Assembly (NCBI GenBank): GCA_963668695.2
Contig: CAXXLQ010000004.1
Coordinates: 3,584,001-3,648,000 of the forward strand
Origin: Vicinamibacteria bacterium
GTDB lineage: Bacteria; Acidobacteriota; Vicinamibacteria; Marinacidobacterales; Marinacidobacteraceae
Reading direction: 5' to 3'
Length of the DNA: 64,000 nucleotides
Shown here: positions 19 through 58,082 of the stretch, in pieces
How the letters are laid out: every line of letters begins with the position of its first letter
Numbering within the stretch: the first letter of the stretch is position 1
Made by a program: the position numbers and the translations under genes
The notes under the pieces: model-generated
Seen by the model: only the letters and a program-made list of their open reading frames with translations
Told to the model about the DNA's origin: nothing
Databases searched by the model: none

Positions 19-338
19 CAGCCTGTGGACAAAGTGACGTGAGCGCCGAGAGCAGCGAGGCGCCCCGCTGACAAGGCGCGCGAGGGAGGAGCCCCCACCG
101 GGAGCACTTGGGCCAGTGACTTTGTCTACAGGCTGCTTAGTAGCCTGTGGTGAAACCCACGTGAGCGCCGAGGCCGGCCAGTTCTCCCGGTGGGGGCGAG
201 GCGCCCGGCTGACAAGGCGCGTGAGGGAGGAATACCCGGTATATTTCGACCGAAACGCAACGCAGAACACAGCGAAGCGGAGTGGTTCAGCCGGGATGGA
301 TCGCCGGTTGAACGCCGCGTGGGTTTCGCCACCGGCTG
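19..338. repeat. Two tandem MITE-like repeats (CAGCCTGTGG...CAGGCTG ends)
   Basis: Terminal inverted repeats with TTAA/TTAG flanks; internal core GGCTGACAAGGCGCG(C/T)GAGGGAGGA shared with about 10 other loci. Confidence 0.8.
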
Positions 339-382
339 CTCACGGCGCGGCTCCGCCAGCGGAGCCGCGCAGCTGCGGCGTG

Positions 383-1177
383 TCAGTCCTTGGAGGAATC
401 CCCGCTACCCGTGGGCGTGGGCGTGGGCGGCTCGAGGAAGGGTCTTATCAGATCGAGCGGGAGGGGAAAGATGATCGTCGAGTTCTTCTCCGAGGCGATT
501 TCGGTGAGCGTCTGGAGATAGCGGAGCTGGGCGCCCAAGGGGTGCTGACCCACGATTGCGGCGGCCTTGGCGAGCTGCGTCGAGGCCTGGAATTCGCCTT
601 CCGCGTGGATGACCTTGGCCCGCTTCTCCCGCTCCGCTTCGGCCTGCCGGGCAAGCGCCCGGGTCATGTCGGCGGGCAGGTCCACATGCTTGACCTCAAC
701 CGAGGCCACCTTGATGCCCCAGGGGTCGGTGCTCTTGTCGAGGATCTCCTGCAACCGGATGTTGAGCTGTTCGCGCTGCGAGAGGAGATCGTCCAGTTCC
801 ACTTGGCCGAGCACGCTGCGGAGCGTGGTCTGCGCGAGCTGCGAGGTGGCATACAGGTAGTCCTCGACTTCGATGATCGCCCGGATGGGGTCCACCACCC
901 GGAAGAACAGCACGGCGTTCACCTTCACCGAGACGTTGTCGCGGGTGATGATGTCCTGCGGCGGCACATCGAAGGCCACCAGACGAAGGGTTACCCGCAC
1001 CATCCGATCGATCGGGGAGAAGACCAGAACGAGGCCAGGCCCCTTGGTGGCCTTGAGGAGCTTGCCGAACCGGAAGACGACGGCGCGCTCGTACTCGTTC
1101 AGGACCTTGATCCAGTTGAAGACGAAGATGGCCGCGAATGCGAGGGCGACCAGAGCTCCCAGGGAAAGTCCGAACAT
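383..1177 (-). CDS. SPFH/band-7 (slipin, stomatin-like) membrane protein
   Basis: [41 protein letters not shown] motifs; directly downstream of nfeD. Confidence 0.93.
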
Positions 1178-1180
1178 GAT

Positions 1181-2557
1181 TCAGCTCCTTGTTTTGGAGA
1201 CGGCGGAGGGATTCGCGTCACGGGCGCCGTCCGGGCCCGGTGCGGCGGCGGAGCCGACTTGGAGGGTCAACCCCTCCAGGAGGGCGAGGACGCGCACGCG
1301 CTCACCCTCGCTGACCGCGCCGGCGGAGGTGGCATCCCAGAACTCGCCGTGGACGAATACCTTGCCGGCGCCGCCGGGGCTGATGTCGGTGTAGGCGGTG
1401 GCCACCAGACCGATCATGCCCTCCCGGCCGCTTACCGCGGGGCTCCTCTGGGAGCGGAGCACCAACTGGCCCAGGAAGAACACCAGGCCCACGAAAACCA
1501 GGACGGACGGAATGACGAGGCCCCAAGTCAAGTTCAATGCGGGTGTCGGAAGGGATTGCTCTTCGAAGAAAAAGAGGAGTCCAATCGTGAGGGCGACCGC
1601 TCCCGACAACCCCATTATGCCGAATGACGGGGTGAGCGCCTCGGCGGTGAGAAGACCGATCCCGGCGAGGAGCAAGAGCACCCCAAGGAGACTGACCGGC
1701 AGGAAGTTGAGTCCGAAAGCCGCCAGCAGCAGCGCGATGCCTCCCAAAATCCCCGGGATGAGCAGGCCGGGGTTCGAAAATTCGAGGTACAGGCCGAGCA
1801 GGCCGATCATTCCCAGCAGCACGGCCAGATTCGGGTTGGCGATCACCGACAAGGCCCGATCGCGGAAGCTCATTTCGGTCTGCACGACGATCGCGTCGGC
1901 GGTATCGAGCACTACCTCGGAGCCGTCGATCCGGGTCACCGTCCGGCCGTGGATCGCAGCCAGAAACTCCTCGGTGTCGCCAGCCATGAGGTCGATCAGA
2001 CCGGCTTCCAGCGCCTCGGACGCCGTCCAGCTTCGAGCCTCGGTCACCCCCTGCTCGGCAAGCGCGACGTCGCGTCCACGGCGCTCGGCGATCGACCGGA
2101 GGTAGGCGGCGGCGTCGGACTCGACCTTCCGGCTCAGGGTCTCGGGCATCTCGCCGCCGGTCCCGGAAATCGGGGTGGCCGCTCCCATGTTGGTGCCCGG
2201 CGCCATCCCCGAGATGTCGGCGGCCAGGGTGATCAGGTATCCGGCGGATGCGGCCCGGGAGCCGGCCGGACCGACGAAGACGGCCACCGGCACCTCGCTG
2301 TTCAGGATCGCCTCGATGATCTCCCGCATCGAGGTGTCGAGGCCGCCGGGGGTGTCGAGCCGGATCAGTACGAGCCCGGCGCCCGCTTCTTCGGCTGCGG
2401 AAATGGTGGCGACCACCTGACCCGCCGATACCGAATGGATGATGTCCACCACGTCCACCTGATGGACGTCCGGAGCCGCCGCCGAAGCCGCCGGCGCGGC
2501 GCAGACGGCAAGGCACACCCCGACCAGCGAAAGGACGGAGGTCTCGGACGACAGCAC
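1181..2557 (-). CDS. nfeD: NfeD-family membrane-bound serine protease (ClpP class)
   Basis: LDTPGGL, AASAG, GAATP motifs, transmembrane region, C-terminal VHGEFWDA domain; canonical pairing with SPFH. Confidence 0.9.
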   Translation of the reverse strand: MLSSETSVLSLVGVCLAVCAAPAASAAAPDVHQVDVVDIIHSVSAGQVVATISAAEEAGAGLVLIRLDTPGGLDTSMREIIEAILNSEVPVAVFVGPAGSRAASAGYLITLAADISGMAPGTNMGAATPISGTGGEMPETLSRKVESDAAAYLRSIAERRGRDVALAEQGVTEARSWTASEALEAGLIDLMAGDTEEFLAAIHGRTVTRIDGSEVVLDTADAIVVQTEMSFRDRALSVIANPNLAVLLGMIGLLGLYLEFSNPGLLIPGILGGIALLLAAFGLNFLPVSLLGVLLLLAGIGLLTAEALTPSFGIMGLSGAVALTIGLLFFFEEQSLPTPALNLTWGLVIPSVLVFVGLVFFLGQLVLRSQRSPAVSGREGMIGLVATAYTDISPGGAGKVFVHGEFWDATSAGAVSEGERVRVLALLEGLTLQVGSAAAPGPDGARDANPSAVSKTRS

Positions 2558-4649: not shown

Positions 4650-4672
4650 CGGAAGCGCGGACCGGGCTAGCC

Positions 4673-6130
4673 CCGATACTGTTCACTTAGTGTATTTGGT
4701 TCGTTATGCTTGCCCCCGGCTCGGCCGGGAGGTTGCCTATGGCGAGAACGGTTGCGGAGCTTCCGAAAGGGAGCCGGATCACCGACTACATCAGCCTCGG
4801 GGTGCTGAACGAGCGGATCCCGCGGGCGGCAGTGGACGAGGCGCTGCGGGCTACGGGGCGGCAGAGTGCCCGTCAGCGGGACCTGCCGGCGCACGTGGTG
4901 GTGTATTACGTGATCGCCTTGGCGCTGTACATGCAGTCGTCGTATCGAGAGGTTCTGCGGTGCCTGGTGGAAGGGCTGCGGTGGCTGGGCGATCCGTCAG
5001 CACGCCCACGGGTGGCGGGGAAGTCGGGGATTTCGCAGGCGCGCAAGAGGCTGGGCGCCGAACCGCTGCAAGCCCTGCATGACGCCGTGGTGCGGCCGGT
5101 GGGGCAGCCGTCGGAACCGGGATGCGGCTATCGGCAGTGGCACGTGGTCAGCGTGGACGGCAGCACTTTGGATGTCGCGGACGAGTCTCCCAACGCGGCG
5201 GCCTTCGGACGCCCCGGCGCGAGTCGCGGCGCCAGTGCCTTCCCCCAGATCCGATTCGTGTCGTTGGTCGAGAACGGAACCCATGTTCTGTTTGCGAGCC
5301 GCATGGCGGGTTGCAACGTGAGCGAACAGCGCCTGGTCGAGGACGTGATGCCCTCCTTGAAGGCGGGCATGTTGTGTCTGGCGGACCGCAACTTCTTCAG
5401 CTACGACCGGTGGAATCAGGCCCGCACCGCGGGGGCGGATCTGTTGTGGCGCATCAAGAAGAACCTGCGCCTGCCACGGGAAACCCCGTTGGGCGACGGC
5501 TCCTATGTGAGCCGGATCTACGCCTCCGACAAAGACCGACGCCACGGGCGAGACGCGGTTCGGGTGCGGGTGATCGACTATCAACTGTCCGGCGTGGGCG
5601 ACGCCGAACCGCTGTACCGGCTGCTGACCACGGTGCTGGATGCGGATCGCGCCCCGGCCCCGGAACTCGCCACCCTCTACCACGAGCGCTGGGAGATCGA
5701 AACCGCGCTGGACGAACTCAAGACCCACCTCCGAGGCCCCCGGATCGTCCTCCGCAGCAAAACTCCCGAACTCGTCCGCCAGGAGTTCTGGGGCCTGATG
5801 TTGGCCCACTTCGCCATCCGCTCCCTCATGCACGACGCCGCCCGGCAGAGCGGAGACGACCCAGACCGACTCTCCTACCTCCATGCGGTTCGTGCGATCC
5901 GTCGCAACATCATCACCCACAGCGCCATTCCCCCCTCAGCGTCAGGACAGCCGCCGCCAACATCTCCTTGACGAACTCCTCGACGAACGGGTGGTGTCCC
6001 GTCGCAACCGGTGCACGCCCCGCGGTGGCAAGCGCAAGATGAGCGGTTATCCGCTGCGCCCCAGGCACGCTCCCTCCTGCCGCATGGACGGCCCGCCAAC
6101 CGTCCGAATCGTCTAAGTGAACAGTATTGG
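4673..6130 (+). mobile_element. IS4-family insertion sequence
   Basis: TIRs CCGATACTGTTCACTTAG / CTAAGTGAACAGTATTGG; flanking direct repeat GGCTAGCC (4665-4672, 6131-6138). Confidence 0.92.
4739..5971 (+). CDS. IS4-family DDE transposase
   Basis: VDGST, LADRNF, YHERWEIETALDELK (YREK) motifs. Confidence 0.93.
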   Translation: MARTVAELPKGSRITDYISLGVLNERIPRAAVDEALRATGRQSARQRDLPAHVVVYYVIALALYMQSSYREVLRCLVEGLRWLGDPSARPRVAGKSGISQARKRLGAEPLQALHDAVVRPVGQPSEPGCGYRQWHVVSVDGSTLDVADESPNAAAFGRPGASRGASAFPQIRFVSLVENGTHVLFASRMAGCNVSEQRLVEDVMPSLKAGMLCLADRNFFSYDRWNQARTAGADLLWRIKKNLRLPRETPLGDGSYVSRIYASDKDRRHGRDAVRVRVIDYQLSGVGDAEPLYRLLTTVLDADRAPAPELATLYHERWEIETALDELKTHLRGPRIVLRSKTPELVRQEFWGLMLAHFAIRSLMHDAARQSGDDPDRLSYLHAVRAIRRNIITHSAIPPSASGQPPPTSP

Positions 6131-6299
6131 GGCTAGCCGCCGGCGGCGCGCAGCGCCAGCGGGCTGGCTGGGGTGGGCGGCCCGGCCTTCCCGGCTAGGT
6201 GAGGGTGGTTGGGATCACGCGCTTCCGCTGTCGCTAGCCGTGAGGGTGGGTAGCGAGGCTTTCGCTCCCCTGGGGCGCACTCTTCAACAGTTCGCGTAG

Positions 6300-12990: not shown

Positions 12991-13007
12991 GGGCGCCGAG
13001 TTCTCAG

Positions 13008-13422
13008 CAGCCTGTGGACAGGGTGACGTGAGCGCCGAGGCCGGTGAGGCGCCCGGCTGACAAGGCGCGCGAGGGAGGAATACCCAGCGTATTTCGACCG
13101 AAGCGCAACGATGAGCGGCGCGAAGCGGCGCGGTGAACAACCTGTGGTGGAACCCGCGTGAGCGCCGAGGCCGGCGAGGCCCAGTTCTCCCGGTGGGGCC
13201 AGTTCTCCCGGTGGGGGCCCGGCTGACAAGGCGCGTGAGGGAGGAATACCGGGTGTATTTCGACCGAAACGCAACGATGAGCGGCGCGCAGCGACGCGGT
13301 CAGCCGGGATGGATCGCCGGCTGAACGCCGCGCGGGTTTCATCACCGGGTGTTCGGCCGGGATGGATCGCCGGTCGAGCCCCCACCGGGAGAACTGGGCC
13401 GCGTTACCTTGTCCACCGGCTG
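13008..13422. repeat. Tandem MITE copies between dnaK and dnaJ
   Basis: CAGCCTGTGG start, CCGGCTG-CTAG end; includes an empty copy and one with a tandem pair of the 18-bp module. Confidence 0.8.
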
Positions 13423-13434
13423 CTAGGTTGGCGA

Positions 13435-16493: not shown

Positions 16494-16538
16494 CGGCGCA
16501 TTCTAGTTTTGCCGGCCGGACGTTGTTGTCGGGGTTAG

Positions 16539-16771
16539 CAGCCTGTGGTGAAACCCAGGCGGCGTTCGAGCGGCGATCCATCCCGCCTGAACCGCCCCCC
16601 CACCGGGAGAACTGGCGCTTTGCGGCGCTCGGCGTTGCGTTTCGGTCGAAATACACTCGGGCCAGTTCTCCCGGTGGGGGCTCCTCCCTCACGCGCCTTG
16701 TCAGCCGGACCCCCACCGGGAGAACTGGGCCTCGCCGCTCTCGGCGCTCACCCGAGTTCCACCACAGGTTG
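16539..16771. repeat. MITE copy with three 18-20 bp modules
   Basis: TTAG-CAGCCTGTGG ... CCACAGGTTG-CTAG. Confidence 0.8.
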
Positions 16772-16785
16772 CTAGACTCGAAAGG

Positions 16786-41045: not shown

Positions 41046-41057
41046 GAAGGGGAACTG

Positions 41058-41666: not shown

Positions 41667-41703
41667 CGCGCCGACGATGGAGCGCCCCAAGAAAGCCGCC
41701 TAA

Positions 41704-42157
41704 CAGCCTGTGGCAAAACCCACGCGGCCCAGTTCTCCCGGTGGGGGCTCGACCGGCGATCCATCCCGGCTGAACCACTCCGCTTCGCTGCGTTCTGCAT
41801 TGCGGTCGAAATACACCCGGGCCAGTTCTCCCGGTGGGGGCTCCTCCCTCACGCGCCTTGTCAGCCGGGCGCCTCGCCCCCACCGGGAGAACTGGCCGGC
41901 CTCGGCGCTCACGTGGGTTCCACCACCGGCTGCTAACAGCCCGTGGTGAAAGCACCCCGCACGAGCCCCAGGAGGTCGCGCGCGGCGAATCCGTCGGTTT
42001 GTGTGCGTGCGGGGCGCTTTCCCCACGGGTTGGTGGTGCGAATCGCTGCGCGATTCGCACCACCGTCTTTCGTGGGGAGGGGAAACCCCTCCCCACACCC
42101 CACCCCCGCGGCGCTGCGCGCCGCGAATGGATGCCTTCCGGGTTTCACCACAGGCTG
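41704..42157. repeat. MITE (41704-41932) plus MITE-ended composite repeat (41937-42157)
   Basis: CAGCCTGTGG/CAGCCCGTGG ends separated by CTAA; right end abuts the rplS TAG stop. Confidence 0.8.
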
Positions 42158-42595
42158 CTAACGCCGTTTCTCCCGCAGCCGGGCTGCCTTTCCCTTGCGC
42201 TCGCGCAGGAAATAGAGCTTGGCGCGCCGCACATGGTGTGAACGGATGACCTCCACCTTCGCCACCAGGGGCGAATGGAGCGGGAAGATCCGCTCGACGG
42301 CGACCCCGAAGGAGGTCTTGCGGACCGTGATCGTGCGGCGGTTTCCACCGTGCTTCATCGCGATCAGGATTCCCTCGAAAATCTGGATCCGCTCCCGGTC
42401 CCCTTCACGGATCGTCGCATGGACCCGAACCGCATCTCCCGGATGGAGGTCCGGTCGGTCCGCCTTCAGATCGGCGGCCTCCAGTTCCCGGATGACTTCG
42501 GCTGCCGGTTTGACCCGGGAGGGCTGATCTTCCGCGGAGACCGCCAGGGCGCTCTCTTCGGGTCCGTCCGCGGTCGGTTGCTCGCTCACACTCAT
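42158..42595 (-). CDS. rplS: 50S ribosomal protein L19
   Basis: PGDAVRV, RIQIFEG, VRKTSFGVAVERIFP, VRRAKLYFLR. Confidence 0.96.
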   Translation of the reverse strand: MSVSEQPTADGPEESALAVSAEDQPSRVKPAAEVIRELEAADLKADRPDLHPGDAVRVHATIREGDRERIQIFEGILIAMKHGGNRRTITVRKTSFGVAVERIFPLHSPLVAKVEVIRSHHVRRAKLYFLRERKGKAARLREKRR

Positions 42596-43332
42596 GATGG
42601 TTTCTCCTTCGTATCTGGATTCGACTTCCGGGCCGCGTCTCTTTCTCCGGCAAACGCCCGGAACAAGTCGGGGCGGCGGCTTCTGGTCAGCTCTACGGAC
42701 TGTTCCCGGCGGAACTGGCGAACCGCCTCGTGGTTCCCCGAAAGGAGCACCGGAGGCACTTCCTGGCCCCGGAAGACCGGGGGACGGGTGTAATGGGCGT
42801 GTTCCAGCAAACCCGTGACGAACGACTCGTCGACAACGGATTCGGAGTCGCCCACGGCCCCGGGGATCAGGCGGGCCACGGCGTCCACGACGACCATTGC
42901 CGGAATCTCCCCGCCCGAGAGGACGTAGTCTCCAACCGAGACCTCCTCCGCTTCGGTCAGCGCGGCAAAGCGTTCGTCCACACCTTCGTACCGCCCGGCG
43001 ACCAGCAGTAGCCGCGGCTCCCGCGCGAGGTCGGCCACCAGGTCCTGGTCGAGCCGTCGGCCGCGCGGCGAGAACAGGATGACCCGGGGCTCTTCCGAGG
43101 CGAGCGCGCCGATCGCCTCCACCGCCTCGACGAGCGGTTCGACGCGCATCACCATTCCCGGCCCGCCACCGTAGGGGGCATCGTCGGCCCGCTGGAAGCG
43201 GCCCTCGGTCCAGTTCGTCAGCGCGTGCGTTTCGATGTGCAGGAGACCGGCCTGCCGCGCCCGCCGCACGATCCCGTGGTCGAAGACCTCCCGGAACATG
43301 CCGGGCAGCAGGCTCAGGATGTCAACGCGCAT
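42592..43332 (-). CDS. trmD: tRNA (guanine-N1)-methyltransferase
   Basis: DDAPYGGGPGMV, GRYEGVDER, GDYVLSGGE, YTRP, LLSGNH. Confidence 0.96.
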   Translation of the reverse strand: MRVDILSLLPGMFREVFDHGIVRRARQAGLLHIETHALTNWTEGRFQRADDAPYGGGPGMVMRVEPLVEAVEAIGALASEEPRVILFSPRGRRLDQDLVADLAREPRLLLVAGRYEGVDERFAALTEAEEVSVGDYVLSGGEIPAMVVVDAVARLIPGAVGDSESVVDESFVTGLLEHAHYTRPPVFRGQEVPPVLLSGNHEAVRQFRREQSVELTRSRRPDLFRAFAGERDAARKSNPDTKEKPS

Positions 43333-43972
43333 TGCTGTCGGTCGGGTTGTTGAGCCCCAAAAGTCCCTGAGGGATGTTGAGAACCACCCGCCCGGTTGTT
43401 TTTCCGGTGGGCGGTTCGACCAGGACGCAGAGGGCTTCGACGAAGGGGATGAGGTCTTCCGAACCGTCGGGGCCGCGCAGGACGAGGAGAGTGGGGCCGG
43501 CGGTGTCGAGGGTGTCCACGATCTCGCCGAGGTGGACTCCTTCCTCGCTTTCGGCCTTGCAGCCGACGAGCTGGTCGGAGTAGTAGCGGCCCTCCGGGAG
43601 GGGCGCCCGCTCGGCATCAGGGATGCGGACTTCCATCCCCCGGAGAGTTTCGGCGGAGGTGATGTCGCTCATCCCTTCGAACAGGATCACCGGACGTCCC
43701 TTGTGGATGCGCACCGAATCGAGGGAACGCCGGGTTCCCGGCCGTCCCGAGGGACCGACTTCGGCGTTTTCGATTTCGAGGAAACGGCCGGGATCGTCGG
43801 TCAGCGGCTGGACGAAGACTTCCCCGCGCCGGCCGAACGGCCGGACGACCTGACCGACTACAACGTCGACGGTGGCGTCATCTCCTGCATCCCGGATTCC
43901 GCCCTCCCGGGAATCCGGGATAGCGGTCCGCGCCTCGGGCACGAGCCCGGATGACGATGTGCCGGAAGCCAT
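43322..43972 (-). CDS. rimM: Ribosome maturation factor RimM
   Basis: VGQVVRPFGRRGE, YYSDQLVG, LIPFV; lies between rpsP and trmD. Confidence 0.9.
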   Translation of the reverse strand: MASGTSSSGLVPEARTAIPDSREGGIRDAGDDATVDVVVGQVVRPFGRRGEVFVQPLTDDPGRFLEIENAEVGPSGRPGTRRSLDSVRIHKGRPVILFEGMSDITSAETLRGMEVRIPDAERAPLPEGRYYSDQLVGCKAESEEGVHLGEIVDTLDTAGPTLLVLRGPDGSEDLIPFVEALCVLVEPPTGKTTGRVVLNIPQGLLGLNNPTDSNAR

Positions 43973-43981
43973 GATCGCTAG

Positions 43982-44180
43982 CGGCCGGTGGACAAAGTCA
44001 CGTCAGCACCGAGACCGGCCAGTTCTCCCGGTGGGGGCGAGGCGCCCGGCTGACAAGGCGCGCGAGGGAGGAATACCGAGTGTATTTCGACCGAAGCGCA
44101 ACGATGAGCGCCTCGCAGAGGCGCGGTTCAGCCGGGATGGATCGCCGGTCGAATGCAGCGTGACTTTGTGCACCGGTGGC
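43982..44180. repeat. MITE copy upstream of rimM
   Basis: CTAG-CGGCCGGTGGACAAAGTCAC ... GTGACTTTGTGCACCGG; shared core. Confidence 0.75.
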
Positions 44181-44364
44181 TTGGTCTCCTGGTCACGCTC
44201 GCCTTGGGGGAGTGGATTGTGTCGGCTGCCTGTGATTCGTGTGCTCGTGATCTGCGGGCGGCGAAGGGCCCCGCAGGGGGAACGGCCCCGCAGGAGCCGT
44301 CAGTCTGAATCCCCGGAGGATTCAGCGCTGCCGGCCGCAGGCGCCGCTTCCGGCCGCGAAACGC

Positions 44365-44697
44365 TTATGCGGATTCGTTGGATCCGGACTTCCCGGACCC
44401 GTTTCCTTCAGTTTGGTCTTCTTCGGCTGGGTTTTCTTCGGATTGGGCGGGCTCGGCGAGCACTTTCTTCAGAAAGCTCTTGACCGTGAGACTCGGCTGC
44501 GCCCCGTGCCCGAGCCAGTAGCGGGCGCGGTCGGCCTTGATGTGCAGCCGGTCTTCCGCATCGTTGGGCATGCGCGGGTGGTAGTAGCCAAGCGTCTCAA
44601 CAATGCGACCGACCCGTCCATGCACCGAATCCGACACGACCACCCGGAAATGGGCGTCGCGCTTCCGACCGGTGCGGGCAAGCCTGATGTTCAACAC
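44365..44697 (-). CDS. rpsP: 30S ribosomal protein S16
   Basis: IRLARTGRK..FRVVVSDS..ETLGYY..WLGHGAQPS. Confidence 0.93.
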   Translation of the reverse strand: MLNIRLARTGRKRDAHFRVVVSDSVHGRVGRIVETLGYYHPRMPNDAEDRLHIKADRARYWLGHGAQPSLTVKSFLKKVLAEPAQSEENPAEEDQTEGNGSGKSGSNESA

Positions 44698-44789
44698 GGA
44701 GAAGAGCCTCGATTCTGGAAAAAGCCGCCGCCGACGGCTGCTCCGAAGGTCGGAAGGGTAGGCCGAACCCACCTTCCAGTCAAGGTCAT

Positions 44790-45743
44790 TCAGATACCCA
44801 GGTCACGCAGAATTCCAGGATTGTCCCGCCATTTCGCCCGGACTTTCACCTGCAGATCGAGAAAAACCTGACGGCCGATCCGTTTTTCGATACGCCCGCG
44901 CGCCTCGGTGCCGATTCGCTTCAGCATCTGGCCTCCCCGGCCGATCACGATCCCCTTCTGGGAGTCCCGATCCAGGAGCAGCGAGGCCGCGATGCGGACC
45001 AGGGGGCCGGAATCGTCGTACTCCTCGATCCGGACCGCGGCGGCGTGCGGGACCTCCTGATGGAGGTTCTCGAGCATCCGCTCGCGGACGATCTCCGACG
45101 CGAAGAAGGCTTCCGGAAGATCGGTGATCTGGCCGTCGGGATAGAGGGGAGGACTGAAGGGAAGACGCGCCGTGAGCGTTCCGACCAGCGAGTCGGCCGC
45201 GCTGTCCCCCTGCCCCCGGTCTTCGGGGTCTTCCATATTCGTTCCGGTGCGCGCCGAGAACGCCACCACCGGACCCAGCTGCTGCTCCCGGTAGAACGCT
45301 TCGAGTTCCCCGCGCCGGAGACGGGGCGCCGCGTCGATCTTGTTGATGCCGATCACCCGGGGACCGGGAAAACCCTCCAGCCGGCGAAGGAGATCCCGGT
45401 CGGCGTCGGAGAGAGCCCGGGTTCCGTCCACGACCGCGAGCGCCACGTCCGCTCCCCCGAGACTCTGGGTCACCGTCCGCATCATCGCCCGGCCGAGGCC
45501 GGTCCGGGGCCGGTGGATTCCCGGGGTGTCCAGCAGGATCAGCTCCAACCCCGGGCGGCGGGCGACGCCGAGGATGCGGCGCCGGGTGGTCTGGGGCTTC
45601 TTGTGGACCGCCGCCAGCCGTTCCCCGACCAGGCGGTTCAGAAGGGTGGATTTCCCGGCGCCCGGCAGCCCGACCACCGCCACGAAGCCGGCGCGGTGTT
45701 CGGGGTTTTCCAGCGGGCCCGGTTCAGACGGTAAGGAGGTCAA
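44790..45743 (-). CDS. era: GTPase Era
   Basis: GFVAVVG..GKSTL, PQTTR, DTPG, NKID, EVPH, SQKGIVIGRGG KH domain. Confidence 0.94.
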   Translation of the reverse strand: MTSLPSEPGPLENPEHRAGFVAVVGLPGAGKSTLLNRLVGERLAAVHKKPQTTRRRILGVARRPGLELILLDTPGIHRPRTGLGRAMMRTVTQSLGGADVALAVVDGTRALSDADRDLLRRLEGFPGPRVIGINKIDAAPRLRRGELEAFYREQQLGPVVAFSARTGTNMEDPEDRGQGDSAADSLVGTLTARLPFSPPLYPDGQITDLPEAFFASEIVRERMLENLHQEVPHAAAVRIEEYDDSGPLVRIAASLLLDRDSQKGIVIGRGGQMLKRIGTEARGRIEKRIGRQVFLDLQVKVRAKWRDNPGILRDLGI

Positions 45744-45747
45744 TTAA

Positions 45748-46436
45748 CAGCCTGTAGTGGAACCCGGGTGAGCGCCGAGAGCGGGGAGGCCCAGTTCTCC
45801 CGGTGGGGGTCCGGCTGACAAGGCGCGTGAGGGAGGAGCCCCCACCGGGAGAACTGGCCCGAGTGTATTTCGACCGAAACGCAACGCAGAGCGCCGCGCA
45901 GCGGCGCGGGTAACAGCCTGTGGTGGAACCCGGGTGAGCGCCGAGGTTGGCCAGTCCTCCCGGTGGGGGCGAGACGCCCGGCTGACAAGGCGCGTGAGAG
46001 AGGAGCCCCCACCGGGAGAACTGGCCCGGGTGTATTTCGACCGAAACGCAACGATGAGCGGCGCGCAGCGACGCGGGTAACAGCCGGTGGTGGAACCCGG
46101 GTGAGCGCCGAGGTTGGCCAGTCCTCCCGGTGGGGGCGAGACGCCCGGCTGACAAGGCGCGTGAGAGAGGAGCCCCACCGGGAGAACTGGCCCGGGTGTA
46201 TTTCGACCGAAACGCAACGATGAGCGGCGCGCAGCGACGCGGTCAGCCGGGATGGATCGCCGGCCGAACGCCGCGTGGGTTTCGTCACCGGCTGTTTGCC
46301 CGGGATGGATCGCCGGCCGAGCCCCCACCGGGAGAACTGGGCCGCGTGGGTTCCACCACCGGCTGTTTGGCCGGGATGCATCGCCGCTCGAGCCCCCACC
46401 GGGAGAACTGGGCCGCCTGGGTCTCACCACAGGCTG
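45748..46436. repeat. Tandem array of MITE units (~166-bp period) carrying eight 18-20 bp modules
   Basis: Units start near 45748, 45914, 46081; repeated 3' ends; flanks TTAA and TTAG (hlyC stop). Confidence 0.85.
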
Positions 46437-47660
46437 TTAGCCTCTCCCAACTCGCGCCAGGCGGACGCGGTGGATCCGCCGCTCGTCGGCCTCGAGGATC
46501 TCGATGCGGAGGCCGTCGTGCTCGATCGCTTCGCCGGGCGCCGGAATCTTCCGGAAGGCCGCGAGCGCGAAACCGGAGATGGTGTCGAAGGCGGCGCCAT
46601 TCAGGGAGTCGGGGAGCAGCAGCCCCGTCACCCGTGAAATCTCATCGAGTTCCGCCCCGCCGCGAACCCGGAAGACGCCATCCGCCTCGCGCACCAGGTC
46701 CTCTTCCAGAGGCTCGTCCTCCTCGTGGACCTCACCCACGATTTCCTCCGAGATGTCACGAAGCGTCACGATGCCCGAAACACTGGCGTGTTCGTCCACA
46801 ACCACCGCGAATGTCTGCTTGGAGAGCTTGAACTCGCGCAGCATTTCGTCCACCCGTTTGGTCTCCGGCACCACGGGCACGTCCCGGAGCAGCGGAGCGA
46901 GTCCCTGGCGGTCTCCGGGTACGGCGATCAGGTCCACGGCATCCACCACCCCCACCACCTGGTCGGCGGCGCCGAAGACCGGAATCCGGTGGTGCCGGCT
47001 GTCGGCGATGAGACGCTCGACCTCCTGCCGCGAGGCCTCGGCGGACACCGAGACGACGTTCGGCCGCGGCGTCATCACCTCGCGCACCAGCATTTCGTCC
47101 AGCTCCAGAACGCCGCGCACCATCGCCGCCTCTTCTTCTTCGAGGATCCCCTCTTCCTCGCCGGTTTCGAGAAAGGCCTCCACCTCCTCGTCCGAAGCTT
47201 CGTCGTCCGGCTCCGAGGGGAGCGGGAAACCGCGCCGCAAGAGGTTGCGGAACGGCTCGGCGAAGGGGCGGACGAGCCGTTCCCAGCGGCCGAACCAGGG
47301 CAGGAGCGGAAGCAGCACGTCTTCCGGGTCGCGCAGCAGGATGGCGGCAGGAACCAGTTCCCGGAGGATGAACCACGCCGGGACGAAGACGCCGAAGGTC
47401 CACAGGAGGCCCGTAGCGCCGAAACCCATCCGATCGAGCACGAAGCCGAGGAGCGCGCCGGCCATCAGGAGACCGAAACGAGCCGGGATGAGCACCACGA
47501 GCGGGTCCGCCAGGCGTTCCCGCAGCGTGCGCGCTTCCTCGACGCTTTCGCCGAGAGCCCGGACCGCGATGGGGCTGGACGCGAAGAACGCGATCTCGAA
47601 GAGGGCGAAGAGAACGACGAGGAGGCCGGCGACCAGCAGGAGCGCGAACCAGAGGACCAT
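46437..47660 (-). CDS. HlyC/CorC family CBS-domain transporter
   Basis: N-terminal transmembrane helices, VREVMTPR, HRIPVF, VVVDEH, EEIVGE, CorC C-terminal domain. Confidence 0.88.
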   Translation of the reverse strand: MVLWFALLLVAGLLVVLFALFEIAFFASSPIAVRALGESVEEARTLRERLADPLVVLIPARFGLLMAGALLGFVLDRMGFGATGLLWTFGVFVPAWFILRELVPAAILLRDPEDVLLPLLPWFGRWERLVRPFAEPFRNLLRRGFPLPSEPDDEASDEEVEAFLETGEEEGILEEEEAAMVRGVLELDEMLVREVMTPRPNVVSVSAEASRQEVERLIADSRHHRIPVFGAADQVVGVVDAVDLIAVPGDRQGLAPLLRDVPVVPETKRVDEMLREFKLSKQTFAVVVDEHASVSGIVTLRDISEEIVGEVHEEDEPLEEDLVREADGVFRVRGGAELDEISRVTGLLLPDSLNGAAFDTISGFALAAFRKIPAPGEAIEHDGLRIEILEADERRIHRVRLARVGRG

Positions 47661-47667
47661 GGGTTAG

Positions 47668-47900
47668 CAGCCTGTGGACAAGGTGGCGTGAGCGCCGAGA
47701 GCGGTGAGGCCCAGTTCTCCCGGTGGGGGTCCGGCTGACAAGGCGCGCGAGGGAGGAGCCCCCACCGGGAGAACTGGCCCGAGTGTATTTCGACTGAAGC
47801 GCAACGATGAGCGAAGCGATGCGAAGCGTTTCAGCCGGGATGCATCGGCGCTCGAGCCCCCACCGGGAGAACTGGGCCGCGTCACTTTGTTCACAGGCTG
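47668..47900. repeat. MITE copy between ybeY and hlyC
   Basis: TTAG-CAGCCTGTGG...CACAGGCTG-TTAA; the TTAA contains the ybeY stop. Confidence 0.85.
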
Positions 47901-48362
47901 TTAATTCCGGAGCAGTCCGTGCCGTAATCGGAGCACGCGCTCGAGTCTCTCCATCTCGCCGCGGTCCTGCTCGTGGTCGTATCCGAGGAGGTGCAGGTAG
48001 CCGTGAACCGCCAGGACGCGGAGTTCGTCGTCGAGTCCGACGCCCGCTTCCTGCGCCTGACGCGCAGCGGTGTCCGCGGAAACCACCAGATCCCCGAGGT
48101 ACTCCGCCTCGTCCTCGCCCAGGAACTCCGAAGGCACGGGATCCGCCGGAAAGGCGAGCACGTCCGTCGGGCGATCCTTGTCGCGGAAGCGGCGATTCAG
48201 TTCCCGGATCTTCCGGTCCGAGACGATCCGGAGGGTGGCGGCGCGATGATCCCCCGGCGCCACGTCCGCGGCGATTCGTTCGAGGAAGGCGGAAAGCTCC
48301 CGCGGGTCCACTGCGAAACGGCGCTGGCGGTTTTGCACTGCGAACCGCGCGGGAGGGCTCAC
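47901..48362 (-). CDS. ybeY: rRNA maturation RNase YbeY
   Basis: LNRRFR..PTDVLAF, LGDLVVS, HGYLHLLGYDH; start uncertain. Confidence 0.93.
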   Translation of the reverse strand: MSPPARFAVQNRQRRFAVDPRELSAFLERIAADVAPGDHRAATLRIVSDRKIRELNRRFRDKDRPTDVLAFPADPVPSEFLGEDEAEYLGDLVVSADTAARQAQEAGVGLDDELRVLAVHGYLHLLGYDHEQDRGEMERLERVLRLRHGLLRN

Positions 48363-48417
48363 GGGTTCCGTACGGTGGTGGGCGACGAAGCTGGAAACGC
48401 GGCGGCCGGGCGGGGCG

Positions 48418-50730
48418 TCATGAGAGCGATGGGCCGAACCCGGGCCCTCCGCCGGCAGCGGGCAGTGCCGGACCGGGGGCCGGAGTTCCCGCACGCTGCC
48501 GTCTCCCGAAGTCGAATCCCGGGTAGGGCACCCGCTCGTGATGGATCCCCTGCAGGCTCGAAAGGAAGCTCTCGCGGATGCGGACCATATCGCCGAGCGT
48601 CAGATCGCATTCGACCAGTTGATCGTCATCGACGATGGCGCCCATGATGCGATCGATCACCTCCTCGAACTCGGCGCCGGTCGGGTTCTTCAGGCTGCGG
48701 GCGGCGGCCTCGATGCTGTCGGCCATCATGATGATGGCTGTCTCGCGGGTCTGCGGGCGGGGGCCGGCGTAGCGGAACAGGCTCTCGTCGGCTTCGGAAC
48801 CGTTCTGGGCAGCCAGGGTCCGGGCTTTCTCGTAGAAGACACGAATGAGGCGGGTCCCGTGGTGTTGCGGGATCACGTCCACGATGTCCTTCGGGAGGTT
48901 CAGGCGCTCGGCGGCCTCGATTCCCTCGCTCACGTGCCTGCGGATGATGTCCGCGCTCTTTTCCGGGGGAAGGAGATCGTGGGGGGATTCACCGCGTATG
49001 TTCTCGATGAAGTACCCCGCCCGGTTCAGCTTGCCGATGTCGTGGTAGAGGGCGGCCGTCGCGCAGAAGGTCGAGTTGGCCCCGATGGCGTCGGCGGCGG
49101 ACTCGGAGAGCACCCCCACGGTCACGCTGTGCTGGTAGGTGCCGGGCGCGGTGAGCGCCAACTGGCGGAGGAGCGGGCTGTCGCGCTGCGACAACTCCAC
49201 GAGCCGCATCTCGCTGGTGCGCTCGAAGACGGTCTCCAGCACGGGCAGCAGCAGGATCACGAGAGGCCCGCAGAGGAGGCCGCCGGCAAAGGCGCTGACC
49301 GCTTCGAGGGACAACCGGGTCAGGCCGCCGAAGTCGCCGGTCACGAGTTCCATCGCGACGACCGGTCCGACTCCGAGGAGCCCGACCAGGGTCCCAACGC
49401 GCAGCAGTTGCGAGCGGCGTTCCGCAACCTGATAGATGAAGATCGCCCCAAATCCGGTCAGCAGGGCGAAGAGCCCCAGCTTCAGGTTGCCCGTCATGAG
49501 GGCCAGCGTCGCGGCAAAGAGCCCCTGGGTGATCACCGCCGACTGCTGCGTCTCCAGAATCACCACCAGCAGCGCCAGCGCGGCGAACGGAACGCCCCAC
49601 AGGTACACCAAGGGGTCGGAGAAGGGTTCACTCGCCAACTGGGCCGCGGCTCCGCGCCCGACGAAAGCGAGAACGCGCGTCAGGGTCAGGTGCAAGACGA
49701 TGAGAAAACCGCACATGGCGAATGCCTGACGTCCCCAGATCTCGTCCCGGCGGGCCGGAACCAGCAGCATCCCAAGCAGCACGACGACTGTGAGCGCGAA
49801 GACGATGGCGCCGACGCCGGCCCATCCGAAAGCTCCCACCCGCGGCGGGCGCATCCGCTCCATCTGGTAGCGGGCGAGTTCCGTTACCTCGTCGCCGGCG
49901 CGTACCAAGGTCCGACCGCGGCGCACCTGGATGAACACCGGATTCACCGACTGCTCGGCCTCCGTTCGGAGGTGGGTGGTCTCCACCGTATTCTGCTCCA
50001 GCGTGGGACGCATGAGTCTCGCCGCCAGCTCGCCGAGCGTCCGGCGGCGCGTCCGATTCAGTTCCGAGAGCGCGAGGATCTGCAGTTCGACCGCTCGCTG
50101 GGCTTCCTCCACCGAGAGCACGTTCGTGAAGTCGGCCAGCGGCTCGGTTTCGCCGCCTTGCGGATCGCGGCGCAGGATGGACCGGCCGAGCGCGGCGACC
50201 GCTCCCTTCTCCGCGAGGATGTCCCGCGCCAGCACGCTCGCCACCGTGTCGGCGAGGTTCTGCTCCATCTCCTCGGCGAACTCCAACTCCACCAGGAGCT
50301 GGAGCTGGGCCGCCGCGACTTCGATGCCGAGCATGCGGGCGAAGGTTTCGGGGAAGTCGGGTTCTCCCGCGATGTCGGATTCGACGGCCGCCCGCCCGAA
50401 TCCGAAACCGCGCGCGATCCGGGCGCGCGCCTCATCCCGGGCCTGGGAATCGAAGTCATAGACCTCGCGTACCTGCTCGACCGCTTCGCGCCGGCGTTCC
50501 TCCGTGGTGGCGGCGTCCTCGTAGGTGAAGTCCTCGGTGGCTCGCACGGTGCGCGGCGCGATCTCCCCCACCTCATAGAGGGGGGTCCGCAGCTCAAGTC
50601 CGGGCCAGATGAGAAGCCCGAGGGCCACCGCCAGGATGGCGGACACCACGCGGGTACGGGCGAACAGCCGATCCCGCTGCCGGAGCAGGAAGCTGCGCAG
50701 CGAGAAGTTCGCGAAGCGCCCCGTTTCCAT
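48418..50730 (-). CDS. 7TM-HD phosphohydrolase (PgpH/YqfF-like)
   Basis: Extracellular domain, 7 transmembrane helices, APGTYQHS, YHDIGK, HHGT, ADSIEAA; phoH-HD-ybeY synteny. Confidence 0.9.
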   Translation of the reverse strand: METGRFANFSLRSFLLRQRDRLFARTRVVSAILAVALGLLIWPGLELRTPLYEVGEIAPRTVRATEDFTYEDAATTEERRREAVEQVREVYDFDSQARDEARARIARGFGFGRAAVESDIAGEPDFPETFARMLGIEVAAAQLQLLVELEFAEEMEQNLADTVASVLARDILAEKGAVAALGRSILRRDPQGGETEPLADFTNVLSVEEAQRAVELQILALSELNRTRRRTLGELAARLMRPTLEQNTVETTHLRTEAEQSVNPVFIQVRRGRTLVRAGDEVTELARYQMERMRPPRVGAFGWAGVGAIVFALTVVVLLGMLLVPARRDEIWGRQAFAMCGFLIVLHLTLTRVLAFVGRGAAAQLASEPFSDPLVYLWGVPFAALALLVVILETQQSAVITQGLFAATLALMTGNLKLGLFALLTGFGAIFIYQVAERRSQLLRVGTLVGLLGVGPVVAMELVTGDFGGLTRLSLEAVSAFAGGLLCGPLVILLLPVLETVFERTSEMRLVELSQRDSPLLRQLALTAPGTYQHSVTVGVLSESAADAIGANSTFCATAALYHDIGKLNRAGYFIENIRGESPHDLLPPEKSADIIRRHVSEGIEAAERLNLPKDIVDVIPQHHGTRLIRVFYEKARTLAAQNGSEADESLFRYAGPRPQTRETAIIMMADSIEAAARSLKNPTGAEFEEVIDRIMGAIVDDDQLVECDLTLGDMVRIRESFLSSLQGIHHERVPYPGFDFGRRQRAGTPAPGPALPAAGGGPGFGPSLS

Positions 50731-55833: not shown

Positions 55834-55837
55834 CACC

Positions 55838-56323: not shown

Positions 56324-56583
56324 CAGTCCGTAGATGAAGTGGGGCGAGGACCGAGAGCGGTGAGGCACCCGGCTGGCAAGGCGCGATTCGGGAGGAATAC
56401 CGAGCGTATTCCGACTGAATCGGAACGCCGAGCAGAGCGGTTCAGCCGGGATGGATCGCCGCTCGTTTCCGAAGCGGGGCGACAGCCGCGCGGAGACCCC
56501 GGAGCGGGAGCGGCTGGGGTCGGGGAACTCGACCTCCAACCGCTTCTGGCTCGGGAATGCCGGTCCACTTCATCCACGGGCTG
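56324..56583. repeat. Diverged MITE abutting the EVE stop codon
   Basis: CTAG-CAGTCCGTAGATGAAGTGG ... CCACTTCATCCACGGGCTG-CTAA. Confidence 0.75.
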
Positions 56584-56644
56584 CTAACGACTGCGACCGG
56601 GCTCGCCCCGGTACACTCGCCGCCGTTTCAAACGGAGGTCTTCC

Positions 56645-57946
56645 ATGTTCCACCGCATCTTCACCCTCGCCCTGCTTTTCGGCCTGGCCGCGCCAGCCGC
56701 CGCCCAGGAACTCGGGGTCTGGGACGACCGCATCCAGGAAGCGGTGTCCGGCCTCGAAGGGGAGACCGTCGCCTTCCGCGAGCACCTCCATGAGAACCCG
56801 GAACTCGGGAACCGTGAGTTCGAGACCGCCCGCATGGTGGCCGAACACCTCCGCCAGCTCGGATTCGACGAGGTGCGCGAAGGGATCGCCCACACCGGCG
56901 TCGTCGGCGTCCTGAAGGGCGGAAAGCCCGGAGCGGTGGTGGCGGTGCGCGCCGACATGGACGCGCTGCCGGTGACCGAGGACACCGATCTCCCGTTCGC
57001 CTCCAAGGTGCGCGCCACCTACAACGCCCAGGAAGTCGGGGTAATGCACGCCTGCGGGCACGACGTCCACACCGCCGTCCAGTACGGCGTCGCCTCCGTG
57101 CTCGCCGGAATGCGCGAGGACATTCCGGGCACCATCCTCTTCATCTTCCAGCCCGCCGAGGAGGGGCCTCCCCCGGGTGAGGAGGGCGGCGCGGACCTCA
57201 TGGTGCGCGAGGGCGTCTTCGACGATCCCCGGCCCCAGGCGATCTTCGGCCTCCACACGCTGTCCGGACTCCCGCTGGGCGTGATCGGTTTCACGCCCGG
57301 GCCCGCGCTCGCCGCGGTGGATCACTTCAAGGCCACCATCACCGGGGTCCAGACCCACGGCGCCCAGCCGCAGGCCGGGGTGGACCCGGTGGTCATGGCG
57401 TCCCAGGTCATCCTTGCGCTCCAAACCATCGCCTCGCGCAACGTGCATCCTCTCCAGCCGGTGGTGGTGACGGTCGGCATGGTCCACGGCGGCCAGCGCT
57501 TCAACATCATTCCGGAGACGGTGGACATCGAGGGCACGGTCCGGACCTACGACCCCGAGGTGCGGGATCTGGTCGAAGCCCGGATGAACGAGGTCCTCGG
57601 GGGAATCACCGCGTCCGGCGGCGGTTCCTACTCGCTCGCCTACGACCGTGGCACTCCGGCGACGATCAACGACCGGGAACTGACCGCCGAGAGCATCCTC
57701 ACGGTGATGCAAATCGTGGGCGGTGAGAACACCCAGGAACTCGACCCGACGATGGGCGGCGAGGACTTTGCCTACTTCGCAAACGAGGTCCCCGGGTTCT
57801 TCTACCGGCTCGGGATTCACAAGGAAGACACCCAGACGGGTCCCCACCACTCCCCGTTCTTCCGCGCCGACAACGCCTCGGTGGCGATCGGAATGCGGGT
57901 GATGTCGAACCTCCTGATGGACTACCTCCTCCGCAACGCGTCTTAG
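56645..57946 (+). CDS. M20D-family amidohydrolase (exported)
   Basis: HENPELG, RADMDALP, MHACGHD, FQPAEEG, MGGEDF. Confidence 0.92.
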   Translation: MFHRIFTLALLFGLAAPAAAQELGVWDDRIQEAVSGLEGETVAFREHLHENPELGNREFETARMVAEHLRQLGFDEVREGIAHTGVVGVLKGGKPGAVVAVRADMDALPVTEDTDLPFASKVRATYNAQEVGVMHACGHDVHTAVQYGVASVLAGMREDIPGTILFIFQPAEEGPPPGEEGGADLMVREGVFDDPRPQAIFGLHTLSGLPLGVIGFTPGPALAAVDHFKATITGVQTHGAQPQAGVDPVVMASQVILALQTIASRNVHPLQPVVVTVGMVHGGQRFNIIPETVDIEGTVRTYDPEVRDLVEARMNEVLGGITASGGGSYSLAYDRGTPATINDRELTAESILTVMQIVGGENTQELDPTMGGEDFAYFANEVPGFFYRLGIHKEDTQTGPHHSPFFRADNASVAIGMRVMSNLLMDYLLRNAS

Positions 57947-58082
57947 GGTCCGGAACCGTCAGGGACCGCCGGCCAGTTCTCCCGGTGGGGGCCTTCAAGA
58001 CCGGCAACGCCCGCCGCAGGCGGGCAGCACTGCGTACAGCCGTCTCGCGCTGATGGCGCGCGACAGCGGGAACGTCGCCCCC

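Follow-up and report, generated by a model that had tools for sequence, protein, structure and literature searches.

A module of 18 to 20 nucleotides, nested in intergenic repeats of a Vicinamibacteria genome and sharing both its ends with a longer non-coding element

The stretch of DNA analysed here (the window) comprises 64,000 nucleotides of a Vicinamibacteria bacterium (GenBank assembly GCA_963668695.2, contig CAXXLQ010000004.1, positions 3,584,001 to 3,648,000 of the forward strand). The genome under study, called G000 below, is assembled into 4.10 Mb in 4 contigs, with 67% G+C, and is 92% complete. By a conserved protein, it groups with metagenome-assembled genomes labelled Candidatus Marinacidobacterium or Vicinamibacteria (Acidobacteriota). 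Its intergenic spacers contain an 18-mer, CCAGTTCTCCCGGTGGGG, which we call M (M' when read in reverse) and which forms a 20-nt unit, CCAGTTCTCCCGGTGGGG+GC, with the two bases behind it. The original prediction, made from the letters of the window, had noticed about 27 copies, all of them intergenic and nested in larger repeats. Allowing two mismatches, 27 matches were found (22 exact, three with one mismatch at 21652, 45951 and 46118, and two with two mismatches at 93 and 30386), and the coordinates first listed were recovered within 2 nt for reverse-strand copies. Shuffling of the window produced a mean of 0.02 matches, and 27 was never reached in 100 shuffles. All 27 copies lie between long open reading frames (ORFs) and between syntenic coding blocks, and all are nested as predicted. 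With moderate confidence, we read M as a minimal insertion element mobilised in trans, multiplied by the repeats that host it and shuffled among them by conversion.

M crosses repeat families as a discrete unit, as had been proposed: in the window, 23 copies are nested in a repeat that we call element A, three in hairpins resembling repetitive extragenic palindromes (REP), at 34372, 57973 and the degenerate 30386, and one degenerate copy (93) in a shortened A. Three internal anchors place 640-710 copies of A in G000. Without M, the element measures 185 bp in 61 of 79 full M-less copies; it begins with TAACAGCCTGTGG..., ends with ...CCACAGGCTGTTA and folds into a single long hairpin, whose arms measure ~55 nt and whose central domain is conserved. 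The arms carry variant pairs that preserve pairing, and in folded A copies holding several M, pairs of M and M' are able to base-pair. A also inserts into A, at one internal point, which gives left-left-left-right-right-right nests. Several A copies of the window are missing in relatives 89-97% identical; empty A sites often differ by a few replaced bases, and the relative G004 keeps TAACAGCC at its empty era-corC site. The second host consists of REP-like hairpins such as GATGCCGGTCTGAAGACCGGCG. Within A, M is found at sites named 1a, 1b, 2, 3 and 4. The window contains the following loci:

93-110, minus strand: degenerate M' (two mismatches), in the shortened A copy at ~16-138.
178-195, plus strand: exact M at site 1a of the A copy at ~138-341.
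13005-13425, plus strand: two nested A copies, left-left-right-right.
13181-13216, plus strand: M-M tandem pair at site 1b of the inner A copy.
13380-13397, minus strand: M' at site 4 of the inner A copy of the 13005-13425 block.
16536-16774, minus strand: A copy filled by M at sites 3 (16598-16615), 2 (16662-16679) and 1b (16711-16728), and empty at site 4.
21506-21709, minus strand: A copy whose single M (21652-21669, T6C variant) occupies site 1a.
30386-30403, plus strand: degenerate M-like 18-mer (two mismatches) in a REP-like context, between ...ctccgg and gccggcga.
34355-34395, minus strand: REP-like hairpin with M' at 34372-34389 in place of one base of the 3' arm.
41701-41935, minus strand: A copy filled by M at sites 4 (41729-41746), 2 (41822-41839) and 1a (41878-41895).
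43979-44190, plus strand: A copy with M, on the plus strand, at site 1a (44019-44036).
45745-46439, plus strand: three nested A copies (left three times, right three times) in the era-corC spacer, with eight M at 45791, 45840, 45951, 46007, 46118, 46173, 46323 and 46394.
47665-47903, plus strand: A copy filled by M at sites 1b (47711-47728), 2 (47760-47777) and 4 (47858-47875).
56330-56586, plus strand: A copy without M, with anchors at 56371, 56406 and 56443 and its right end at 56586, the start being approximate.
57973-57990, plus strand: M after ...gaccgccgg in a REP-like hairpin.

The A copy at 56330-56586 provides an all-sites-empty reference inside the window, and another A copy without M (~41934-42160) abuts the one at 41701-41935. 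In the nest at 13005-13425, sites 1a, 1b and 2 of the outer left half are all empty. The tandem pair of the inner copy (13181/13199), which the original prediction had described as clean, is real, and its 18-bp phase is unambiguous.

Comparison with relatives revealed that these loci differ both in the presence of the host and in its filling by M. The 420-bp block at 13005-13425 is missing from the orthologous spacer in G001, G004 and G008, and the A copy at 21506-21709 from the spacer of G004 and G008. The era-corC spacer measures 27-31 bp in G001 and G004 and holds a single A copy in G008; it is empty in G009, as judged from flanking matches that end back to back. At 43979-44190, A is absent in G001 and G008, and a contig of sequencing run X8 (from a strain ~99% identical) joins straight across the A site; in G004, M at site 1a is reversed at the same CCGG, as a pure 18-bp insert in gc/cgg (here and below a slash marks the insertion point), and a further M occupies site 2. 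For the A copy at 16536-16774, four genomes display four states, the occupancy at sites 4, 3, 2 and 1b being 0,0,1,1 in G004 and 1,1,0,0 in G008, with A inverted and without M in G001. The hairpin at 34355-34395 is empty in G001 (ccggtctgaagaccgg) and has empty paralogues in the window at ~19521-19860. Spacers orthologous to that of 57973-57990 contain different REP arrays in G001, G004 and G008. Overall, between genomes of 89-97% identity, occupancy varies at orthologous copies of A and REP, and in one case the orientation of M varies too. As a side observation, a 13-bp tandem duplication (ggcgctcctgggc, 34390-34415) adjoins the M-filled hairpin at 34355-34395 and is missing in the empty G001 orthologue.

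Direct copies of M are linked to deletions. In the window, the shortened A at ~16-138 has lost its interior between two M sites of the same orientation. In G001, the orthologue of 41701-41935 (locus 41690) is a 178-bp form deleted between two M copies, and that of 47665-47903 (locus 47650) is deleted between two direct M copies, the latter locus holding an A without M in G004 and no element in G008. Automated orthology over 480 kb of G001 gave recognisable flanks for 3 of 100 G000 copies and 4 of 31 G001 copies, several pairs being doubtful; it fails because the turnover of the repeats is too fast.

Differences are also found inside the assembly itself. Contigs C1 and C3 correspond, as haplotigs with 97.6-99.9% identity, to C4:304-421 kb and C4:3505-3538 kb, and C4:9-148 kb repeats C4:3776-3914 kb, an overlap of ~140 kb between the ends of the circular assembly. 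Haplotigs and overlap probably account for the 9% 'contamination' of G000, and this redundancy inflates repeat counts by ~7-9%. Between haplotigs, we observed an exact 18-bp indel leaving GAGGC/GTCCGG, and an M pair facing a single M.

Counting M genome-wide, as the original prediction had suggested, gave 1,288 exact copies and 1,566 with at most one mismatch, or 1,424 by the latter threshold in the non-redundant part of the assembly. When the genome is decomposed into 14-mer unitigs, the 20-mer M+GC is the top unit, with 1,238 copies, all other units, any segment of A included, having at most 500. M is asymmetric and non-palindromic, and its borders are sharp. Over 1,565 aligned copies, information amounts to 1.5-2.0 bits at all 18 core positions. 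It is 1.6 bits at -2 and 1.0 at -1 (G, then G or C), 1.4 at +1 and 1.3 at +2 (G, then C), and it drops beyond, to ~0.2 at +3 and 0.9-0.5 upstream. GC directly follows 870 of 1,165 exact copies. In C4, 1,232 of the 1,565 copies found at up to two mismatches are identical and 270 have one mismatch, which is T6C in 149 of them; parts of the host repeat are as uniform as M.

Genome-wide, 379 copies occupy site 1b, 348 site 4, 319 site 2, 208 site 1a and 62 site 3, with 119 in REP-like hairpins and 131 elsewhere. At each A site, the orientation of M relative to A is fixed. Clustering of the flanks yielded 103 non-tandem contexts. The left flank ends with CGG, GGC, GCG, TGG, GGG or CCG in 92 of them (CGG, TGG or GGC in 66, CCGG in 24), and the right flank begins with GC in 58. 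The coexistence of empty and filled versions of a site, noticed at first in the window, was found there and genome-wide for four pairs: GAGGC/GCCCGG and GAGGC[M][M]GCCCGG; GGAGGA-ATA-CCG and GGAGGA-GC[M']C-CCG; GCGGC-GT-TCGA and GCGGC[M]GCTCGA; and, in REP hairpins, CCGG-T-CTGAAG and CCGG[M]GC-CTGAAG. In none of these pairs is the target duplicated, and 0-3 target bases are replaced, three (ATA) by the M allele of site 2; these two features had been predicted correctly, as had the presence of M in both orientations relative to the chromosome. Pure 18-bp inserts are found in GGC/GC (site 1b, also site 4) and in gc/cgg. Among empty site 4 copies, 115 have GC and 213 have GT.

One junction, in which CCGG/T becomes CCGG[M]GC with a net gain of 19 nt, occurs at three unrelated places, namely A site 1a, both arms of the REP hairpin, and CCCGG/TGGGG inside M itself. 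This last nesting, TCTCCCGG[M]GCGGGG, concerns 63 of the 259 M copies of G018, a genome of another genus; none was found in G000 and 12 other genomes of its genus. The filled sites do not go back to a single position, an origin that would have refuted the original prediction; this is borne out by the ~100 contexts, by another host in another genus and by the differences in occupancy at orthologous sites.

M is evenly distributed along the chromosome, with equal forward and reverse counts in every 200-kb bin; on this equality, a Chi-like or KOPS-like strand or replichore bias was rejected. The even spread without strand bias would suit a motif maintained by selection or by biased uptake, for example a DNA uptake sequence or, in the way of dRS3 of Neisseria, a site bound by a nucleoid or recombination protein, for which spreading would be a side effect; so would the presence of the same 18-mer in three genera of the family (see below). 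Mosaic arrays and deletions at M also resemble the Neisseria intergenic mosaic element (NIME) arrays (PMC1797815). However, copies of M differ by sharp indels of the whole unit rather than by drift through point mutations, and 1,435 of 1,566 are in A or REP-like contexts, no coding context standing out among the other 131 (coding regions were annotated in the window only). M is moreover not palindromic, and the longer elements described next share its ends only. We find a selected or uptake motif very improbable.

It had been proposed to look for M at the end of a larger element, and such an element exists outside the window. A search with half-modules detected a family ending with ...GACCCGATCATGNGGGTTTCTCCCGGTGGGGGC (28 matches, duplicates included), and ~7 of 18 aligned copies begin with CCAGTT-GCTGTGAAAATGCAGTCGCGCC... 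right after typical left flanks of M. We call XL these non-coding elements of 150-380 bp. They start with CCAGTT-GCTGTGAAAATGCAG... and end with ...GATCATGNGGGTT-TCTCCCGGTGGGGGC, the terminus shared with M being TTCTCCCGGTGGGGGC. Since XL begins with CCAGTT and ends with TTCTCCCGGTGGGGGC, M equals the two ends of XL put together, its first 6 and last 14 nt (14-16 nt are shared at the right end). These ends, CCAGTT... and ...CTCCCGGTGGGGGC, are not reverse complements of each other. C4 contains 21 left ends (LE) and 25 right ends (RE), which form 13 LE-RE pairs 148-378 bp apart, two of them being one locus counted twice in overlapping contig ends. No LE-RE pair with a coding interior was found in G000, and the sole long pair (2.3 kb, in G004) is an XL interrupted by an IS110 element. 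XL is absent from the window; its loci include:

G000, C4:2157839-2158066, C4:902768-902975, C4:716611-716901 and others: XL.
Relatives, loci L186, L190, L191, L193, L194, L197, L200 and L201: XL.

Full copies of 181-338 bp are present in G001, G004, G006 and G010, and the RE was detected in 13 of 15 other genomes of the genus. In G010, XL was also seen as a tandem array of three units with a 383-bp period.

The positions, orientation and junctions of XL match those of M. At A site 4 the arrangement is CACGCGGC/XL/TCGGCCGGCGATCC, at A site 2 in G001 it is ACACCCGGG/XL/TCCTCCCTCACGCGCC, and in REP contexts ...CCGG/XL/CTTCAGACCGG and GGAACGCCGG/XL/CTCCAGACCGG are found. As XL copies at different sites share their interior without sharing flanks, units bounded by the ends of M have moved as units, and these copies are the best evidence that units with such ends move. 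The interior of XL contains a REP-like hairpin. Rfam returned no match at E ≤ 0.1 in five XL loci (the window gives tRNA only). A consensus fold of eight copies has 54 pairs, of which one shows a compensatory change, so that a conserved structure is unsupported. By the REP hairpin lies a box, GCGGGAGCGC (alignment columns 108-116 and 221-228), which holds CGGGAG, the complement of CTCCCG in M; the consensus fold pairs CGGGAG with CTCCCG, without covariation.

The correspondence between M and the termini of XL could have arisen if XL were a cut-and-paste element and each excision left M, the joined first 6 and last 14 nt, at the site as the record of a past visit, an idea already present, as an excision scar, in the original prediction. 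Such an origin would explain the sites and junctions common to both, and the rarity of XL (~20-25 ends per genome) beside the abundance of M; the genome encodes a Ku homologue, so end joining is possible, and tandem M and M nested in M could reflect repeated visits. Yet M is present in genera where no XL end was found (numbers are given below), its copies (1,232 of 1,565 identical in C4) are more uniform than usual repair footprints, and tandem runs are confined to one site. In addition, we found no locus occupied by XL in one genome and by M in another: for the two XL loci tried, the spacers of relatives, of ~110 bp and ~39 bp, leave no room for XL and are empty. We think it quite unlikely that M is a scar, and this proposal, like that of spread by conversion, is retained only as a rival or as a partial contributor.

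We next consider how widespread M is. It was found in 17 of 30 other genomes searched, all in one family. All 15 other genomes searched within the genus (g1) carry M, and of three further genera sampled in the family, the sister genera g2 and g4 have it and G017 of genus g3 does not. Across two more families of the order, 12 genomes gave no M. Copy numbers are 692-776 in closed genomes and low in fragmented metagenome-assembled genomes (MAGs), as expected if repeats do not assemble. A scan of 185,579 species genomes with the exact 20-mer produced at least 91 loci. Among the matches listed, all come from acidobacterial MAGs except one 6-kb contig (L111) of a 'Gammaproteobacteria' MAG; it carries M plus a truncated M' in the same REP-like context as acidobacterial genomes, and is probably mis-binned. 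Viral contigs contained no M and neither end of XL.

The stretch 41000-48500 of the window is present in runs of 8 studies, with at least half of the sampled words in 14 runs, and one run holding it is labelled sponge metagenome. In the 4 runs examined, contigs end at M, and a summed depth of ~100,000x is reached in most of the bins with many A and M (5 of 8 in run X1); unique DNA in X1 has ~180x. As a sum across hundreds of copies, the depth of 230-596 that RNA runs show over such bins does not speak for expression. An adapter or assembly artefact, against which the original prediction had asked for independent data, is excluded, because M is present in 17 other assemblies and in runs of 8 studies, at a depth that fits hundreds of copies. 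The same prediction had suggested a patch templated by RNA and written by a reverse transcriptase. The fixed length and sequence of the insert are all that speaks for a patch or an artefact; the genome gave no match to the reverse transcriptase profile RVT_1, and this pair of explanations is close to refuted.

In four genomes of the genus, M outnumbers A about twofold (1566/642, 747/299, 776/434 and 692/391). In G018 the ratio is 259/22, M being there mainly in other repeats. Every combination of occupancy is present at sites 1a, 1b (with 0, 1 or 2 copies) and 2 of A. Site occupancies are weakly associated (odds ratio of 2.5 for 1b and 2, other pairs not significant), which indicates that paired stems are not required. 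On a backbone tree of 182 single A copies, built without the columns adjoining sites 2 and 4, occupancy needs 39-50 changes per site, compared to 43-54 when labels are shuffled. As the tree of a 185-bp repeat is weak, this result shows that occupancy is decoupled from descent, and does not tell the cause.

In the reading that we favour, the 20-nt unit would be the shortest, ends-only member of a non-coding family with fixed asymmetric ends. A putative trans-acting enzyme would recognise these ends together with a short G+C-rich target, and would move M itself and not only XL. The 5' end would join directly after CGG, TGG or GGC and the 3' end would meet the target minus 0-3 bases, with no duplication. 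Targets would be hairpin-forming intergenic repeats, that is A, REP-like hairpins and the CCGG/T inside M. Inside a repeat family, most M copies would come from the rapid spread of the host and from short-tract conversion, which among hundreds of copies would mix filled and empty alleles almost at random; this division between insertion and conversion is conjectural, and the evidence for a role of conversion is substantial. Direct copies of M would act as portable homology, with deletion of the intervening DNA.

A number of observations weigh against this proposal. Six plus 14 nt is very little for recognition by a transposase, and in five stretches of M with flanking sequence, folding was no stronger than after shuffling (z from +0.29 to +2.02); M itself is almost invariant, which leaves too little variation to judge compensatory changes. 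The genome has no match to Y1_Tnp/RAYT (PF01797), to the reverse transcriptase RVT_1 (PF00078) or to the serine recombinase Resolvase (PF00239), profiles for which the control was positive in 6, 3 and 12 of 14 genomes, respectively. No XL bearing an ORF was found among the 21 LE of G000 and 16 loci of relatives, and no excised or circular form of M or XL was seen, the public runs giving short contigs that end at M and so can reveal neither indel heteroplasmy nor circles nor transcripts. Outside the genus, 12 genomes of six genera yielded no RE of XL, and 5 genomes of three genera no LE. M, which exists outside genus g1 where the ends of XL were not found, thus has the wider range; XL may be the parent of M and have been lost or have diverged in the other genera, or it may be an M that acquired an insert. 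Finally, conversion between fixed alleles would fit much of the pattern. Essentially, site 2 comes in two haplotypes, ATA (276) and GC-M'-C (285); its CCTGG variant is seldom filled, and one haplotig pair swaps the whole site 2 allele. Intermediates of the 'precise 18-bp' kind number 11 at site 2, 14 at site 1a and 0 in REP. The 125 tandem runs of M (121 pairs, 2 triples, one of 4 and one of 5) are all at site 1b, and the second copy often carries the same T6C variant.

The two fixed haplotypes of site 2 with their few intermediates, the swap of whole alleles between haplotigs and the restriction of all tandem runs to site 1b would also be accounted for by a passive cassette: M would have entered a few sites long ago and have since been spread by its host repeats, by recombination and by short-tract conversion, with no transposition of its own, and may have been kept for protein binding or for longer hairpin stems. 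Linkage of M occupancy with nearby variants, near-random occupancy on the backbone tree, as expected under rampant conversion, and the base-pairing of M with M' in folded multi-M copies go in the same direction. But one junction rule then governs ~100 flank contexts, the unusual T-to-GC junction recurs in three unrelated sequences, M included, hosts differ between genera, and XL with its cargo sits at several M-type sites without shared flanks; as to the stems, site occupancies are weakly associated and paired stems are not required. We regard a purely passive history as unlikely.

The original prediction saw no responsible enzyme in the window, and this holds for the whole genome. The Y2_Tnp (IS91) profile was silent in genome and control alike, and hence uninformative. 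There are six tyrosine recombinase matches, and for TnpB a sub-threshold match of 22 residues only; none of the enzymes of the genome can be tied to M. Intervals flanked by M, in a RAYT-like arrangement, number 108, and many of their ORFs are no more than read-through into element A. A single IS110-family gene lies inside the arm of a REP-like hairpin (C4:482399-482872), and the same kind of IS110 lies in a REP hairpin inside XL in G004 (L187 ~870-2900). In the most far-reaching reading, the 20-nt unit itself might be cut or copied and pasted by a novel enzyme that targets CCGG-type hairpin motifs and belongs neither to the HUH Y1 transposases nor to the reverse transcriptases or serine recombinases; we advance this only tentatively.

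Searches of the literature on the genus, on the sequence of the motif and on repeats of sponge bacteria or Acidobacteria found nothing relevant. By analogy, the closest described counterpart of M would be the small dispersed repeats (SDR1-8) of Nostoc and other Nostocaceae. In 2008, Elhai and colleagues reportedly described SDRs of 21-27 nt, highly iterated, embedded in other repeats and in mini-transposons and sharing a predicted secondary structure with compensatory changes; some are said to nest in themselves, and their mobility to have been deduced by comparing relatives. We know of no enzyme or mechanism for SDRs. M is similar in being short (18-20 nt), present in 1,424 non-redundant copies, embedded in other repeats and nested in itself (63 copies, in G018). 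Both have a short palindrome as target, CCGG for M and HIP1 for SDR5, and M is polymorphic in presence at orthologous loci (16500, 34364, 43960 and 47650) and between haplotigs, conversion being a possible cause. In cyanobacteria, SDR5 is described as lying in HIP1 (PMC5861425; PMC3116915). Unlike SDRs, M belongs to another phylum, has an unrelated sequence, is smaller, does not fold above shuffles, and has a longer form with the same two ends, which SDRs are not known to have.

dRS3 of Neisseria is a unit of ~20 bp with hundreds of copies in intergenic mosaics, whose array length varies by strain; it is an inverted repeat, ATTCCC-N8-GGGAAT, flanking variable RS units, and a proposed recombination site (PMC1797815). 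M likewise measures ~20 bp, has many copies and punctuates intergenic mosaics, but it is asymmetric and interrupts conserved repeats rather than bounding variable units. Further, dRS3 is a phage attachment target; the viral contigs carried neither M nor XL ends. DNA uptake sequences, which arise by point changes and are found in coding as well as non-coding DNA, differ from M, which lies in repeat contexts and varies by indels of the whole unit and not by point changes.

With miniature inverted-repeat transposable elements (MITEs), which derive from IS elements, M and XL share the absence of coding capacity, high copy number, short and long forms with the same termini and targets, and presence/absence polymorphism. 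They differ by having neither terminal inverted repeats nor target-site duplication, and no autonomous partner was found. The smallest known MITEs measure roughly 50 bp or more, against 18-20 bp for M. Non-autonomous derivatives of IS200/IS605 and of the REPIN-RAYT systems are mobilised in trans. These systems, REPs included, resemble M in their asymmetric ends, single orientation 3' of a short target, lack of duplication and preference for hairpins; the difference is that no Y1 transposase or RAYT gene is found in the genome and that M is too short for two subterminal hairpins. REPs are palindromic, and M is not and has no stable hairpin. IS110/IS1111 elements have asymmetric ends and insert in REP-like hairpins (in G000 and G004), but the IS110 is single-copy, has ends unlike those of M and XL and is inserted ~4 nt from the point used by M in the hairpin. 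IS607 differs in its serine recombinase, and retrons, group II introns and diversity-generating retroelements in their reverse transcriptase, neither enzyme being found in the genome of M.

If 20 nt of ends do suffice for movement, M would be the smallest transposable element known, setting a lower size limit for mobile DNA and revealing the minimal cis requirements of a new transposition system. It would provide a compact pair of ends with a short defined target, the long forms carrying up to ~360 bp of cargo. M would also be a second example of very small mobile repeats, in an unrelated phylum, and XL would be, to our knowledge, the first longer relative tying such repeats to ordinary non-autonomous elements. 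The question, posed in 2008, of what moves tiny repeats becomes testable by comparing a few closed genomes. As estimated from copy counts, M and its host repeat account for several percent of the DNA in these sponge-associated genomes. Each copy interrupts short-read assemblies, and the repeats drive rapid spacer turnover, deletions and inversions between strains 95-99% identical.

Other repeated or mobile features of the genome were considered as sources of M and rejected. The ends of the IS110 element are unlike those of M or XL, and the termini of the multi-copy DDE-type insertion sequences (IS4-like, IS256-like and IS1634-like) are unlike M. A CRISPR origin was set aside since the repeat of the ~43-repeat array by cas1 (C4:3280877-3283510) is unrelated to M. 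Other regular arrays lie at C4:574347-575899 and C4:2554748-2555672, for instance 25 copies of a unit with TGTCGCTCTAGCGAAGCCGGCC. An IS1634-like element with a 640-aa ORF is found in the loop of REP hairpins, at C4:1786003-1788216 and C4:3128216-3130428, and one of these copies has an M in the neighbouring hairpin arm. Finally, an IS4-like insertion sequence occupies 4663-6148 of the window; its ORF (4706-5971) encodes 421 aa, its inverted ends are GGCTAGCCCCGATACTGTTCACTTAG, and a second copy lies at C4:2955078-2956563.

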